A stretch of DNA of 35,268 bases from a virus (Duplodnaviria > Heunggongvirae > Uroviricota > Caudoviricetes), in the IMG/VR virus record IMGVR_UViG_2778261214_000028, positions 1 to 35,268 of that record; one strand, given 5' to 3'. The stretch's first letter is position 1, and every line of letters starts with the position of its first letter. The position numbers were made by a program. This document shows positions 1-6,000 of the stretch, piece by piece.

Positions 1-3000
1 GAATCCGATATTTTCCCCGGCCTGAAACTCTCTTGCGGGCTTGTTTAGTCTTACAGTAATCGAATGTGCCATTAAGCAGCAGCTCCTTCTAATTCGTCTC
101 GTCTGATGTTGTAAACGTCCTGCGCTTTGTGCTGCTCCGGTGTGCCTTCGAGCATCTTCCACGCTTTGGCGAACGCCTGTTTAAGCTCTTCCACGGTGTT
201 TTTCTGCAATGCTGCGTCAGTGAATGCTTTTAGAACCTGTTCAGGTGTAGGTGATGGTTTTGACTGCTTTGCTGCTGCGTTCTGCTGATGTTTATGCTCG
301 TCGGTATCTGCATCTTTCGCATCATCAATGCCGAACAAACCATTGAGGCAATACTTGCGTGCATAAGAGCTTGTAGCTCCCGTAACTTGTGCAGAATCCA
401 TTCCTTTCTTGCTTTCTTCCTCTCGTGCAAGAGCGGTTGCCGTATGACTGTTTTCGCCATCGGTAATAGTTGCCGTGGCTTTCACATAATACCGATCACC
501 AATCAACACAACTTCATCGCTGATTGATAAAAACAGGCCATTCAGTAACGGCTTAACGCCTTCAAGAATGTCTTCGCAGCTTCTGTATTTATATTTACCG
601 AATGAGTCGTACTGATTCTTTGGCGCGTTCAAGTTCTCCTGAATAGCTGCCAGTCTTGCGTAAAAGTCTTTGCTCATATGTTTGTTCTCAGAATGGGCAT
701 GGCCCAAGGAAATAACGCTGATTTAATACTTCAGTCTTTGCCGCATTTAAAAATACGCGAACACCTTCACGATCTCCCTTCTGGCGATACATTAACGCCT
801 GCTGCGTGTACATGCGTCTCTGTAACTTGCTCTCCTTCACTGTGGTTGCAAGTGACATGAATATCTCCTTCGTTACCGATTAATTCTTTCATCTGACGAA
901 TGAATTCTTCGTCTGACCAGTTATCTGTGAAACTCATTTCCTGCGATACCACGGAAGGTTGATAGCTGATTTCATCGCTTTATTTGCTTCAAGCCACATT
1001 TTTGAATCACCAATAAATCTGGCTATTACTGCTTTGTTTTGTGCCGCACGAAGCATCTGGTGATTAATGGCTATTTCATTGCGCATAACGCCTCCAGTTG
1101 TTTCTTTGCTGCTCTAATTAATTGTTTAACTCGGCGTGATAATTCAGATTCGTGCGGGTAGAAAGCGGACATGACGCCGCTACCCGCGAGCTGAAAGTGC
1201 ATCATGGGTAACTCCTTATATTTGATTGCATAACGAAAACGCCTCGAGTGAAGCGTTATTGGTATGCGGTAAAGCCGCGCTTAGGCGGCTGATGTTTCTT
1301 CTTTCAGGCTTTCGAGATATTTACGTGGGTCGTCGTAACATTGGCATTCGCTGTACCAATCCACCCAGCGATCAGTAAGCCCCACCTCTGATAAATCTTC
1401 ATCGGTAAGGCTCTCATCCCACATCTCAAGGCCGTTAGCATTGCAGTAATCAGGCTTGATGTTGTTGTCATACTGAAAGGCGTCATAATCAGCCAGTGCG
1501 CCCATCAGGCGAACACCCTCTTCAACACTTGCCACTTCTGCAATGAACGGTTTCATAGGTACTTGCGGGATATGCCAGACACGTAATTTCATATTTCCTC
1601 CGTCAAAAAAATCGCCCTCACATTGGAGGGCAAAGAAGATTTCCAATAATCAGAACAAGTCGGCTCCTGTTTAGTTACGAGCGACATTGCTCCGTGTATT
1701 CACTCGTTGGAATGAATACACAGTGCTTATTCGTACTAATAAAATACCCAATTTTCTGTTTCTTGGTTGTGTCCAAAGTTATATTCAATATCTGGTGTTG
1801 ATGTATCAATATTTTTCATCCCATCAACAAGAGTTGATACAACAGCCAAATCTTGTTTTATTCTCATTAAATGGTATTTCTTCCGGCGCAATAAACTTTC
1901 AATAGCAAGTTTCTTCGTTGGGAATGCAAAAGATCTTTCTGCATTTTTTGCTACTTTCTTAATTGCATATCTATTTCTCTTTTGTTTCCATTCCTGTAAC
2001 CACTGATTTGGTGCTGGTTTAAAATTAACAATCCAATGCGCAGGAACCAACCATGCATAATGCTCTGTCTGATGAAAAGCTATATATTGAAGTGCGAATA
2101 TTTTGATTCCATCTTCTTCAACTGTCGCCTGGAATCTCCAGAAAACAGGCATTCCATCATGTTCAGTTTCTGATTCAGGAAAAGGTACGCTCCATGATTT
2201 TGTCATATCTCACCTCAAATAAGTGGTTTGCTGTCTAATTTCATTTTCTGGCGACCAACACAAGTCACACCCATTTCACTGCGTGGCTTGCGGTAGTAAA
2301 GATTGTGCCTGTCTTTTAACCACATCAGGCTCGGTGGTTCTCGTGTACCCCTACAGCGAGAAAAATAGTAAAATCCTCTTACCCCTACAGTAAGAGAGTA
2401 ATTTATATGGATGTGTTATCTGGTATAACTGCCGCGAAACAGGCTTATGATCTGCTGAAGACAATAAAAGAAACCAGAGACGATGCTGTTATCGCTAAAG
2501 CTATTGGTGATCTACACCAAAGAATAACTGACTTACAGATGCTTAATGCGGAGCTCTCTGGCCTTTATCAGGCCGAGAAGGAGATCGCAATGAAGCTTCG
2601 AGATGAAAATAGAAAAATCAAGATGTTTGTTGTGCAAGCTGAGAATTATGAACTTCATACAACTGAAGGTGGTTCTGTCGTGTATCGACCTAAGAGTCAT
2701 TCCGATCCTTCTATTCAGCAGCATAACCTTTGTGCACATTGCTTCGGCGAACATAAAATATCGATACTTCAACCAAGCACGGTTACTATAAAATCTAATG
2801 GGTTCTTTGTGCATTCATGTCCTCGCTGTAAGAATGAATACCGGATGTATAGAGCGCCAGACCCTAAGCCTGTATATGTACCGCCGCTGACAAATTATTA
2901 ATTTTATTCCTGAAATGGCCTCTTCACCCCCTTACTTTGTCAGGGGGATATCTCCTTCAGTTTTGACCATTCGCCTTAATACTTTCCTTAAGTCGATGTA

Positions 3001-6000
3001 AAGTTGAAGGTCTCCATTTGCTGCGGCATCAGCCATTTTTTGCCTGACAAGCAGTAATGTTTCATACGGCTCAATAAGAATATCGTCATGAGTAATTAGG
3101 TGAAGCGTTGCCGCATCAACTATTCCTAGAGCTGCGCCAAGTATCAAAAATTCCCTGCTATTTTTGTCGCATGAGGAGATAAGCGTATTTAGCGCATACC
3201 TAATATTCTTTATAGCTGTTGTTAATGCTGCAATTTCTTCTATGGCGTCTTCTCCAATGAGCTTTTTAAGCTCATATTTTTCTTCCTGACCCATAATTAC
3301 CTCGCCGTCAGTTGTTTTGATTTCCGGTAGCCTGCCGCGTAAATGGCTACGTTTGGCAGGCAAATACTTCCACTGCATTCATCTGCCTTCTTGCAGCGAA
3401 GGCTTCCGAGTGATGCTGCTTTATCTGCTCTGACGCAACCAGAGAGCTTTAGCGCAATTTTTCGTGCCAATCGCTGTTCTTGCATTGCCTGTTCACGTTG
3501 AGCCTGTCTGCGTGCTCTGCGGCGATTTCTGGCGTTATCGTCAGCCAGATATGTAATGACTACTGTCATGTTGACCTCCGATGATTGACTTTGGCGGTGA
3601 CGCGCCGGGTGCTTATCTTCCGGTTGCCGTCGTGCAGCTGCACTTCACGTCACCCCAAAGCCAACTACTCTTTGGTTCCCGCATTTCGGCGGGACAATCC
3701 CATCAATGTTAAAGAGCCTGCCAATCTGTTCCGTTTGGCTTCCAGCGTCCTGCTGATGGCTTAAAGATAACTTAGGTTATAGGTGTGGTCAATAACCTAA
3801 TTTATATTTTATGGTAAATAGGTTATAAGTGATGGATAACAAAGGTATTTTATTTTTGTAAATGTTGCTGATTGATTGGTGTTTGAGGGCTTGCGTGCGG
3901 GGTGAAGGTGTTACCTTTGGCTTGATGCTTGTCTATGATGAGGATGGTTGATTGGGTGGTGAACGGCAGGAAAAGAAAACCCGGCGCTGAGGCCGGGTGT
4001 TTTTAGTCTTTTCTTTTGCTTAGCATTTCGTCGATTTCTAAGTCAATACGATATTGATCTATTGCTTTTCTCTCGTTTGGGGTTGGTATTTTATACTGTT
4101 CAATTAGATCTGTTGTGTATTTTATTTCATCTAATGTGATTTTTATATCAGAGAGAATCTCTTTTATATCAATTATATGCTCTTCTTCTTTTGCACGATT
4201 AGAGCTATGTTCAATCATTTGAGATAGCTTTTTACTAATGCTTAGCAAAACAAAAAGAATGATGACCAAAACAACAACAAAAACTATCAGAAATTCCATT
4301 ATCCCTCCGCACTTCCGTAAGTCTTCTTCTGATTATCGGTTACCAACTATGAGACGACCAGAATACTCTGCCAATAATCCTTACGGTTTCATGAAATTCA
4401 TCTCTATCCATTACTTCATCCGGGTACTCTTCGCGATTTATTGATCTGATTATCACCGATGTAGGGGTGGCGATTAATGTTTTTACTCGTAACAAATCAG
4501 ACTGGCAAATAGCGTAGGTTTTACCATCTCTGATTGTGGTATCTTGCGTGTTAACACCAACAACATCGCCATCGTGAAGCGTTGGTTCCATGCTTTGCCC
4601 TACAACCCTAACTAGCTTGGCTGATCTTTCAGATACTCCCATCTTTTTCAGATAGTGCTTTCTGAAAACCAAAGAGAACTCCGATGATTCCTCTAGCTCG
4701 CAGCTACCGCTTCCAGCTGAAAGCGAAACGTTAAGAAGAGGCAACGCAACAAACTCGTCATCGTTTCTTTTAATGTCTTCCCATACCACAGCTTTTAAAG
4801 ATGAATCACGGACATTGGATGGTTCTTCATGTGCACCATCCCTCATTTCACCAATACCAGAACTAAGCCATTCAGGACGCACTTTTAAAGCATTGGCTAA
4901 TTCAACCATCTTGCGAGATCCGTTTGTTTTACCGGACGACATCTTCTGTATGGCTGGCTGAGATATTCCAACCATGTCAGCAAGCTGTGATTGTGATACC
5001 CCTGCTGAGCTCATGGCTGCATTTAGTCTTTCTGCGAATGTTTTCATACCCACAAATCTATAACTACGGTTATCCAAAGTAAAATAACAAAGGTTATTGC
5101 TATTTTTTATAACTTGAGTTATCTTTGGTTATAAGTAATGACCACAAGAGGTATGCTCATGAATTTAGTAATTCAACGAGCCTTGAAAATTGTCGGTAGC
5201 CAAAAGCGCCTTGCCGACAAGTGTGGTGTAACGCAGCCAGCAGTACACAAATGGCTGAAAGGCGGGTTGGTCTCTCCAGAGAAAGTTACCGCCATCGTTA
5301 ACGCCACTGGAGGGCAGATCAAGGCTTACGAAATTCGCCCCGATTTGCCACACCTGTTTCCAAAACCGAATCAGGCAGCATAAGTAACACCGCTCTTTAA
5401 CAGTCATGGTCCTCATTCCCGCCGAAATGCGGGAATACAACGCGCATAAGTTGATGCGCATAACTTCTTATTTGTTAAGGAAATACTTACATATGGAACT
5501 TACAAGTACTCGCAAGAAAGCGAATGCAATTACAAGCAACATCCTGAATCGAATTGCTGTACGTGGTCAGCGAAAGGTTGCCGACGCGTTAGGGATTAAT
5601 GAATCGCAAATTTCGCGATGGAAAGACAGCTTCATCCCAAAAATGGGAATGCTTCTGGCTGTTCTTGAATGGGGTGTTGAAGACGAGGAGTTGGCGGAAC
5701 TGGCTAAGAAAGTAGCCAGAATGCTGACAAAAGAAAAAGCCCCGAAGAACGGCGAATTCTTCGAGGCCTGATGTAGAAAGACTGGATCAATCCACAGGAG
5801 TAATTATGACATACGAAAATGACAAATTCCAGGTTCTGAAGAGCATGAAGGTGCCAGATGATTTTAAATCAAATGGCTTTGTTTATGTGCTTTCGAATGA
5901 GTGCATGCCAGGAATTTATAAGATTGGGATGACTAAGCATTCACCAGAAGTTAGGGCTAAAGAAATTTCAGCCTCTACTGGCGTTCCTAAGCCATTTAAG

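Follow-up and report, generated by a model that had tools for sequence, protein, structure and literature searches.

The sieB slot of a mosaic lambdoid phage holds hkaP, a probable Rip1-family gene behind a portable leader with a predicted sas-like antisense RNA

Introduction

In phages lambda and P22 the exclusion gene sieB converges with the N gene (gene 24 in P22). According to reviews of the work of Ranade and Poteete (1993), the P22 RNA sas pairs with the sieB mRNA and shifts translation from SieB to Esc, an antagonist made from an internal start, and the Esc obtained in this way lets P22 escape its own exclusion. A 2026 RNA sequencing (RNA-seq) study mapped P22 sas to 11,387-11,513 on the minus strand and printed its sequence (PMC13397905, Table 2). 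Here we describe hkaP, a gene that has the identical position and orientation in a stretch of 35,268 nucleotides (nt) from a tailed phage (Caudoviricetes; IMG/VR record IMGVR_UViG_2778261214_000028, positions 1 to 35,268), the whole of which we call the window.

Two other described systems are close to hkaP. Rip1 is encoded by Escherichia phage HK446, and the cryo-electron microscopy structure PDB 9OOX holds it together with the small terminase of Enterobacteria phage T6; the entry contains 12 chains of the 164-amino-acid (aa) Rip1 protein. A meeting report (PMC12908700) presents Rip1 as a prophage-encoded block to incoming phage in which 12 Rip1 cap an 11-mer terminase, and suggests a pore mechanism, and a preprint lists Rip1 among small-terminase sensors (10.64898/2026.04.30.721860). 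Tab of phage JBD26 is a single-gene moron expressed by the prophage from its own promoter, on the minus strand within the lytic operon; it acts late, and the cell dies (PMC10884400).

The initial annotation of the window had seen in positions 1736-3294 a single, uncharacterised three-gene cassette for defence or host takeover that interrupts the leftward early (pL) operon. Our results lead to a different picture. The operon is not unusually interrupted, since N and sieB converge in the same way in lambda and P22; "uncharacterised" does not fit hkaP, whose relationship to Rip1 is detectable by sequence and fold and whose relative has been solved in complex with a small terminase; and the three genes, hkaP, hkaQ (orf120) and orf156, assort independently among related phages. 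What is new is that Rip1/HkaP and SieB share a portable leader containing sas, and that a co-varied second flavour of this leader stands before other small cargoes; hkaP itself is a divergent member of a family characterised in 2025-26. We met no description of the shared leader in Rfam or in the literature that we searched, to which access was limited; the Rip1 paper may cover part of this finding.

Results and discussion

HkaP as a probable member of the Rip1 family

The central part of the locus holds the following features.

2407-2901, plus strand: hkaP, Rip1-family gene by profile, fold and BLASTP, coding for a coiled coil and a C4 zinc ribbon; putative terminase sensor
2290-2411, minus strand: predicted locus of a sas-like antisense RNA, complementary to the hkaP 5' untranslated region and start codon and spanning the promoter region
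2932-3294, minus strand: hkaQ (orf120), near-orphan helical early gene, translationally coupled to N
3297-3569, minus strand: N antiterminator of the phage 21/H-19B type (Pfam N_peptide, E 1e-15)

The 164-aa product of the plus-strand gene is HkaP of phage HK620 (99.4% identity), where it is annotated as a "putative superinfection exclusion protein". Sequence comparison and a structure model together make it very likely that HkaP belongs to the Rip1 family. Searched against PDB sequences, the HkaP family profile matched 9oox_L, "ring interacting pore 1 (Rip1)", with an E value of 7.4e-18, in an alignment that spans HkaP residues 16-148 and Rip1 residues 28-158, and BLASTP gave 28% identity between the two proteins (E 4e-14). 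Moreover, HkaP and Rip1 fall into one single-linkage BLAST cluster of 42 cargo proteins among the leader copies listed below. The AlphaFold model of HkaP, made with 20 homologues as input, has a predicted local distance difference test (pLDDT) score of 82 and consists of a helix (residues 3-22), a long helix (26-80) and then a beta domain holding the cysteines C109, C112, C138 and C141; the N-terminal helix is amphipathic. When this model was compared with the PDB by Foldseek, the top match was 9oox_M (E 1.4e-6, probability 1.00, template modelling score 0.56 for the query and 0.69 for the target); only 9oox_M and 9oox_L were significant, the next match having an E value of 0.48.

The initial annotation had read the protein as a helical N-terminal half followed by a zinc-ribbon-like C-terminal half, which agrees with the model. 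The two CxxC pairs that it noticed are real, with a spacing of 25 residues and not 26. Thirty-four homologue clusters were found for the protein. All four cysteines are invariant in the 20-homologue alignment and are kept in 7 distant homologues, including Rip1 and the Pseudomonas members; together with Y81, Y93-R94-x-K96 and L121-Q122 they are invariant between the E. coli, HK446 and Pseudomonas members.

HkaP resembles Rip1 in length (164 aa), in its fold of a helix, a long coiled coil and a C4 zinc-ribbon beta domain, in the common motifs NYE(L/M)HT, VVYRxK, LCAxC and SILQ, and in its slot, antisense and just downstream of N. Indeed, the Rip1 gene of HK446 is antisense and directly past N, and the GenBank note on Rip1 (HK446 gp37) reads "similar to HK620p16". 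In contrast to Rip1, HkaP has neither the 11 extra N-terminal residues nor the Gly/Ala-rich hydrophobic stretch, the segment aligned with that stretch being shorter and amphipathic, and in the window phage hkaQ intervenes between hkaP and N.

An AAGGAG stands 6 nt before the in-frame Met62 of hkaP (window 2578-2592) and could give a 103-aa C-terminal product reminiscent of Esc. As a family trait such an internal start was rejected: only the HK620-type allele has AAGGAG-N6-ATG at Met62.

Close HkaP homologues (45-79% identity) are found in prophages of Salmonella, Serratia, Yersinia, Pantoea, Hafnia, Edwardsiella, Sodalis and Enterobacter, and distant ones (26-30%) in E. coli Mu-like phages, Klebsiella phages and about 30 Pseudomonas Casadabanvirus genomes, so that the Rip1 family reaches from enterobacterial lambdoid phages to Pseudomonas Mu-like phages. 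The Pseudomonas members include DMS3, JBD30 gp30, ORF25 of D3112, MP38 and LPB1 (the homologue lies at 2965-3471 of our LPB1 locus, L004, and at 2998-3492 of our JBD30 locus, L005). In every setting examined, the HkaP-family gene is antisense to the lytic operon. In HK446 and in one prophage each of Salmonella Javiana and Serratia it stands past N; a phage that has no N carries it between the cI repressor gene and its leftward early genes; in Enterobacter its neighbours are Q and the holin gene; and it lies between the gene for the small terminase (TerS) and that for the large one (TerL) in the Pseudomonas phages. The proposal of an autonomous moron with its own promoter is supported by this constant antisense orientation, in at least five contexts, and the suggested sieB position and defence kinship by the slot shared with lambda and P22 sieB and by the relation to Rip1. 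In Pseudomonas, a putative small-terminase sensor is thus encoded beside the phage's own small-terminase gene.

The TerS-TerL site of the Pseudomonas homologues is also the hotspot that holds Tab and anti-Tab in JBD26. Like tab, hkaP is a single gene antisense within a lytic operon with, as proposed, its own promoter, and the late action of Tab with death of the cell resembles the mode that we propose for HkaP. Tab, an unrelated protein of 83 aa, differs in that its targets are the tape-measure protein and tail assembly and that it has a dedicated protein antidote, whereas no obligate partner was seen for HkaP among the leader loci compared.

The leader of hkaP is shared with sieB

When the 200 nt upstream of seven family members were aligned, the last 100 nt or so before the ATG were far better conserved than the proteins; the leaders of the window and HK446 are 99% identical, though the proteins share only 28%. 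BLAST of positions 2285-2409 against phage genomes gave 142 records, in most of which sieB is annotated at or just downstream of the match. The leader covers about 2306-2406 (some 100 nt), and its similarity to the lambda and P22 sieB leaders, at 86-87% identity, extends left to about 2285.

Lambda: match at 34375-34491; sieB at 34482-35036, plus strand; N at 35037-35438, minus strand
P22: match at 11382-11494 (window 2285-2401, 86% identity); sieB at 11509-12087, plus strand; gene 24 at 12108-12410, minus strand

The sieB arrangement is also present in SPN9CC, VT1-Sakai, Lambda_4B5, SEN22 and others. The reverse complement of the published P22 sas aligns with the window from 2290. Judged from these alignments, the last 120 bp or so (2290-2406) of the gap upstream of hkaP, which spans 2207-2406 and is exactly 200 bp long as first annotated, shares homology with the sieB leader of lambda and P22 and with the sas locus mapped in P22. 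Rfam gave no family for the window leader at gathering or permissive thresholds, and it holds no model for sas.

SieB and HkaP, which are encoded behind these leaders, are unrelated proteins. They form separate BLAST clusters with no link at E 1e-5, and the maximum 19-residue hydropathy on the Kyte-Doolittle (KD) scale is 3.0 for P22 SieB and 1.7 for lambda SieB, as against 0.6 for HkaP, which is without a hydrophobic segment. The possibility that HkaP is a SieB protein was ruled out by the missing BLAST link and the missing membrane-spanning segment.

Since the P22 system is homologous and the HkaP family is invariably antisense, hkaP might be silenced by a sas-like antisense RNA during the phage's own pL transcription; on this analysis we see the chances as evenly balanced.

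Promoter, repeats and interleaved stems of the leader

The leader contains a predicted promoter, a repeated decamer and two pairs of complementary arms.

2369-2374, plus strand: predicted -10 hexamer TAAAAT of a PsieB-type hkaP promoter, with a predicted start near 2381
2347-2356: repeat copy 1, ACCCCTACAG, in the loop of the TTCTCG/CGAGAA helix
2381-2390, plus strand: repeat copy 2, ACCCCTACAG, where the hkaP mRNA is predicted to begin
2338-2343 and 2357-2362: TTCTCG and CGAGAA, the helix flanking repeat copy 1 and overlying the -35 region
2307-2311 and 2326-2330: GCCTG and CAGGC, interleaved pair 1
2318-2323 and 2334-2339: AACCAC and GTGGTT, interleaved pair 2

The promoter call is based on comparative conservation. 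Among the matches listed, a scope that applies to all leader, cargo and hkaQ-neighbour counts given here, all 56 unique leaders of this first flavour and 79 of 82 of the second flavour described below have TAnnnT at a distance of 3-9 nt ahead of repeat copy 2 (135 of 138 in total), and the hexamer varies between TAAACT (lambda, P22), TATAAT and TAATAT elsewhere. The two ACCCCTACAG copies are 34 nt apart, and a helix of 5-6 bp flanks copy 1 in 54 of the 56 unique first-flavour leaders. A purine-rich, Shine-Dalgarno-like stretch precedes the hkaP ATG at 2407.

Both interleaved pairs vary in a compensatory manner, pair 1 in the haplotypes GCCGGG/CCCGGC, TCCGGG/CCCGGA, ACCCGG/CCGGGT and CGCCTG/CAGGCG, pair 2 in ACTACC/GGTAGT, CCACG/CGTGG and AATCCT/AGGGTT. 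They were scored by a dedicated script, MAFFT having misaligned the 5' arm of one stem, and reached 10.7 compared with 7.4 +/- 1.4 for shuffles, a difference that is only indicative because the stems were chosen to maximise pairing. As the arms interleave, they form either an H-type pseudoknot or alternative hairpins. Only on the minus strand do the loop lengths suit an H-type pseudoknot: there, the first loop has 0-4 nt, and the last, which is A-rich, has 5-9 nt.

Different cargoes follow the leader, and a second flavour exists

Scanning IMG/VR for the invariant core of the leader, GTACCCCTACAGYGAGAA, gave at least 119 loci, which together with the earlier loci amount to 136 leader copies. 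Their cargo was as follows.

SieB: 76 of 136 copies
Divergent SieB-like membrane proteins: about 7 further copies
Rip1-like proteins: 25 copies
HkaP-like proteins: 17 copies
An 80-aa protein: 2 copies
Without cargo, leader joined to the hkaQ 3' end: 8 copies

Leader and cargo join a few bases ahead of the start codon. The empty leaders have lost hkaP through a clean deletion bounded by two short repeats, CCTCTTACCCC (window 2375-2385) and CCTCTTCACCCCC (window about 2919-2931). Natural variants with the leader fused to hkaQ are L032, L043, L050, L073, L084, L101, L103, L139 and L148-L150 of our locus set.

A second flavour of the leader, first seen in locus L151, has the same interleaved-stem element and carries TTCCACAGTCAA in both repeat copies. 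It is present in L151, L007-L009 and L152-L271 (for instance at 1698-1741 of L158 and 7031-7074 of L168); the IMG/VR search for paired TTCCACAGTCAA gave at least 120 further loci, with 82 unique leaders. The repeat period is 33 nt in 78 of these 82, and the 5-6 bp helix flanking copy 1, now TTCCTT/AAGGAA, is found in 70. Because both copies changed in concert while the architecture was kept, they must match each other. Such matching would be expected either if the loop of an antisense RNA, carrying the complement of copy 1, recognises the 5' end of the mRNA or if one protein binds both DNA sites.

Cargo behind the second flavour comprises at least 64 distinct proteins of 54-94 aa in at least 14 similarity clusters, including a GhoS-family protein above the Pfam threshold and several double-CxxC zinc ribbons. 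The 80-aa protein of the first flavour recurs here, and the 94-aa gene that converges with an hkaQ homologue in L007-L009 is second-flavour cargo.

On the pL strand of the second-flavour leader of L168, positions 7077-7153 (plus strand) have a sub-threshold Rfam match to isrK (RF01394; 21 bits against a gathering threshold of 50, E 0.008). This match covers the GCCGGG/CCCGGC hairpin and the adjoining intrinsic terminator; the window itself has no such match. Going by this resemblance, IsrK of Gifsy-1 might be a relative of the sas-like RNAs.

It is possible, although we would not expect it to hold, that the leader as a whole is a portable switch between self and non-self. In it, a promoter with a poor -35 would be joined to an antisense RNA that arises only while a pL-type operon is active; this RNA would have a pseudoknot in its 3' part, and one of its hairpin loops, repeating the complement of the mRNA 5' end, would make a kissing contact, so that whatever cargo stands behind the leader would be expressed in the lysogen and shut off when the phage itself grows lytically. 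If true, there would be a large unannotated family of antisense-controlled prophage morons, and with it a catalogue of new candidate defence genes.

hkaQ

The orf120 product is HkaQ of HK620. Its gene starts 2 nt past the N stop codon, with a GAGG Shine-Dalgarno sequence 5 nt upstream, and the protein has one conserved hydrophobic helix (KD 2.03, residues about 49-67). A search of 1.8 billion representatives found two real relatives only (64% and 52% identity) besides fragments and repetitive noise, and HkaQ had no match among PDB sequences. A longer, 148-aa reading (2932-3378, starting from 3378) was rejected: it overlaps N, and it is contradicted by the 64%-identical homologue, which starts at the methionine equivalent to ATG 3294. 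This 148-aa form is named "antitermination N domain protein" in NCBI clusters, its extra 28 residues being N in another frame; the name is probably a start-site mis-annotation.

Proposed function and points that weigh against it

By its layout, the central module reads as a sieB-slot cassette, that is, a portable leader of about 100 nt followed by hkaP. We consider it probable that hkaP is a lysogen-expressed, terminase-sensing abortive-infection gene in this slot, silenced by antisense RNA during the phage's own lytic growth, and that the block consists of three juxtaposed modules rather than one system. For the parts of this reading, a role of HkaP in defence is likely, and specific sensing of the small terminase slightly favoured over its absence. 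In the lysogen, hkaP would be transcribed rightward from a repressor-independent promoter of the PsieB type. Once a foreign phage reaches late gene expression, HkaP would bind its small-terminase ring and then oligomerise on it, by analogy to the 12 Rip1 on the 11-mer T6 TerS (9OOX); the oligomer might damage the membrane, and the cell would die before progeny release. When the phage itself grows lytically, N would let pL transcripts read through hkaQ and, in antisense, across hkaP, which would yield a sas-like RNA whose sequence complements the ribosome-binding site and start codon of hkaP. This RNA, together with convergent transcription, would stop new HkaP synthesis and so provide self-immunity. 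The reading gives a testable function, terminase-sensing abortive infection, to a gene of the widely used model phage HK620. Moreover, a common leader with a known antisense RNA suggests how suicide genes spare their own phage, and the two leader flavours offer a sequence handle for finding further prophage defence cargo.

Several points weigh against this proposal. The maximum 19-residue hydropathy of HkaP is 0.6, compared with 1.28 for Rip1 (at Rip1 residue 11), and pore formation by HkaP is uncertain because it is without the hydrophobic Gly/Ala-rich N-terminal segment of Rip1. At 28% identity the target specificity, and even the effector step, could differ between the two proteins. The Rip1 mechanism itself is taken here from the PDB title, one meeting report and one citing preprint, and our literature search found no experiment on HkaP. 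No internal Shine-Dalgarno sequence with ATG is conserved among 22 distinct HkaP family members. The sas RNA could originate from processing of the pL transcript or from a promoter of its own; if the P22 sas promoter lies inside sieB, hkaP would be without it. A simple sigma-70 consensus scan found no plus-strand promoter in 2207-2406, the predicted one being missed because its -35 is poor. As for RNA structure, pair counts leave the strand undecided (10.7 versus 10.6), as do G-U versus A-C counts, and single-sequence folding of the leader is no better than that of shuffles on either strand (z about -0.6 and -0.5).

Alternative explanations

Like Tab and anti-Tab of JBD26, hkaP and hkaQ might form a defence and self-immunity pair, in which the lysogen makes HkaP and the early pL product HkaQ neutralises it during the phage's lytic growth. 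The two genes are adjacent and convergent, as are tab and atab (PMC10884400), hkaQ occurs in the phage database only where hkaP is present (7 of 7 records), and the conserved hydrophobic helix of HkaQ could act at the membrane, the site of any pore. A generic antidote would also be useful to a module carried by phages with unrelated packaging (HK620; HK629 and HK630; the Stx1a phage; the P22/Sf6-like window), and the hkaP-hkaQ-N module was indeed found across phages with at least four different packaging systems. All 8 hkaP copies at 90% identity or more have hkaQ next to them; nevertheless, this is not independent evidence, because they are near-identical copies of one recently spread module that includes N. 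Beyond these copies the association is lost: 9 HkaP-like genes (36-79% identity) and 25 Rip1-like genes are without hkaQ, while hkaQ stays beside the 8 leaders from which hkaP is deleted and once beside sieB, and its 64% homologue stands beside GhoS-like cargo. HkaQ tracks N rather than hkaP. HkaQ and HkaP are, moreover, unrelated in sequence (hhalign probability 0.2%), and we regard such a pair as unlikely. Still far less probable, to the point that we give it hardly any weight, is that the block 1736-3294 was gained as one three-gene island. It is true that all three genes are accessory, that none of their products has a significant match in Pfam, NCBIfam or PADLOC 2023, that their GC content is below the window average and that 64 of 5,426 complete E. 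coli genomes have the three-gene arrangement, with a coverage of at least 80%. However, about 1,950 E. coli genomes match parts of the block only; HK620, HK629 and HK630 have hkaP-hkaQ without orf156; PA28, 933W and H-19B have orf156 without hkaP or hkaQ; and HK446 has neither orf156 nor hkaQ. The comparison of related genomes for this block, proposed with the initial annotation, therefore did not find it kept together in these phages, and the breakpoints fall exactly at the module edges, 1726/1735 and 2305/2306.

A further question is what HkaP and its leader do. Zinc ribbons of the C4 type are frequent in DNA- and RNA-binding proteins and transcription factors, HkaP has weak sub-threshold Pfam zinc-ribbon matches, and it is without a transmembrane segment; instead of a defence effector, it could hence be a lysogen regulator that binds nucleic acid and modulates, for instance, transcription or recombination. 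This is quite improbable in view of the specific homology to Rip1, which was solved bound to a phage small terminase, of the slot and leader held in common with the exclusion gene sieB, and of the Pseudomonas homologues in the Tab defence hotspot. A more open competitor concerns the leader, which may be conserved as a DNA element, with operator-like direct repeats at -35 and +1 to which a host or phage regulator of the promoter would bind, or as a homology arm for cassette exchange. The shift of both copies together, from two ACCCCTACAG to two TTCCACAGTCAA with the spacing of 33-34 nt, the -10 position and the flanking helix all kept, would be expected for two sites of one protein as well; the cargo junctions lie right at the leader edge, and the thermodynamic folding of the leader is unremarkable. 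On the other side, sas is an experimentally described antisense RNA at exactly this locus in P22, compensatory changes in three helices point to an RNA or single-strand structure, and no candidate regulator co-varied in the loci examined, for which no systematic test was made. We therefore hold the DNA-element explanation to be doubtful, and continue to favour hkaP as an antisense-silenced, terminase-sensing defence gene.

The window phage, orf156 and other accessory genes

Positions 1500-3700 of the window are 99.9% identical to the Stx1a-converting phage Stx1a_10051, and parts of them 99.3% identical to HK620, HK629 and HK630. The late half is P22/Sf6-like, with an Sf6-type small terminase (16502-16927), P22-type portal and coat and a tailspike head-binding domain; the structural genes span 16502-33866, and the small terminase is 88% identical to its Sf101 and HF4s counterparts. 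Since the early-left arm is Stx1a-like and the late half P22/Sf6-like, the window phage is, by its gene content, a mosaic lambdoid distinct from the Stx1a phage itself.

All three open reading frames (ORFs) of the block lie where the initial annotation placed them, and they are genuine genes and not chance ORFs, since each is conserved as a protein in other genomes. In PHROGs their products match only families without known function, and in E. coli genomes, those of O26 and of pathogens with Stx phages among them, RefSeq labels all three "hypothetical protein". The homology and structure searches that had been suggested for them were fruitful for hkaP, which led to Rip1; no function could be inferred for orf156 and hkaQ. 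The remaining features of the block are the following.

1736-2206, minus strand: orf156, AT-rich early accessory gene of the pL operon, phrog_1636
1612-1633, minus strand: intrinsic terminator-like hairpin with an 8-bp stem (5 GC pairs) and a TTTTTTT tail, downstream of orf156

The gene orf156 is indeed AT-rich, as first described (35% GC compared with 46% for the whole window). It is the equivalent of 933W L0079, on which our literature search found nothing, and has 33 homologue clusters with 40 invariant columns. HK620 and HK446 are without its module (about 1727-2305) and have 1726/1735 joined straight to 2306. The module, with flanks that match lambda on the two sides of ral-orf28, fills the slot between the tL2A-containing segment and the sieB leader that is taken by ral and orf28 in lambda, and in phi367 orf156 adjoins ral. 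In contrast to this likeness in position, nothing searched, Ral included, resembles orf156 in sequence or fold: its AlphaFold2 model has a pLDDT of 63, with no Foldseek match at E<1 and no PDB sequence match. Both orf156 and hkaQ are thus separate early accessory genes of the pL operon, for which, by position, we would guess a role in host takeover or counter-defence.

The hairpin with its T-run exists as initially annotated, its position being 1633-1612 on the minus strand instead of 1605-1631; it corresponds to the site annotated tL2A in HK620. Positions 1600-1726 are 98-99% identical to HK446, lambda and VT1-Sakai. Another accessory early gene of this arm stands just beyond the terminator, at 1281-1592 (minus strand); its product is homologous to gp17 of P22/H-19B (PF17420, "superinfection exclusion gene product 17", E 2e-53).

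On the other side of N, a 98-aa ORF with 29% GC (4003-4299, minus strand) lies directly downstream of a cI-like repressor gene (4340-5077) on the same strand. Its product has an N-terminal transmembrane helix (KD 3.67) and no family match, and a strong terminator comes after the ORF (3998-3979, minus strand). Standing in the rexAB/hkaS position, it is a second candidate for a lysogen-expressed moron. Finally, between the cII-like and replication genes, positions 5806-6450 (plus strand) code for a 214-aa protein with T5orf172/MUG113 (GIY-YIG-like) domains.

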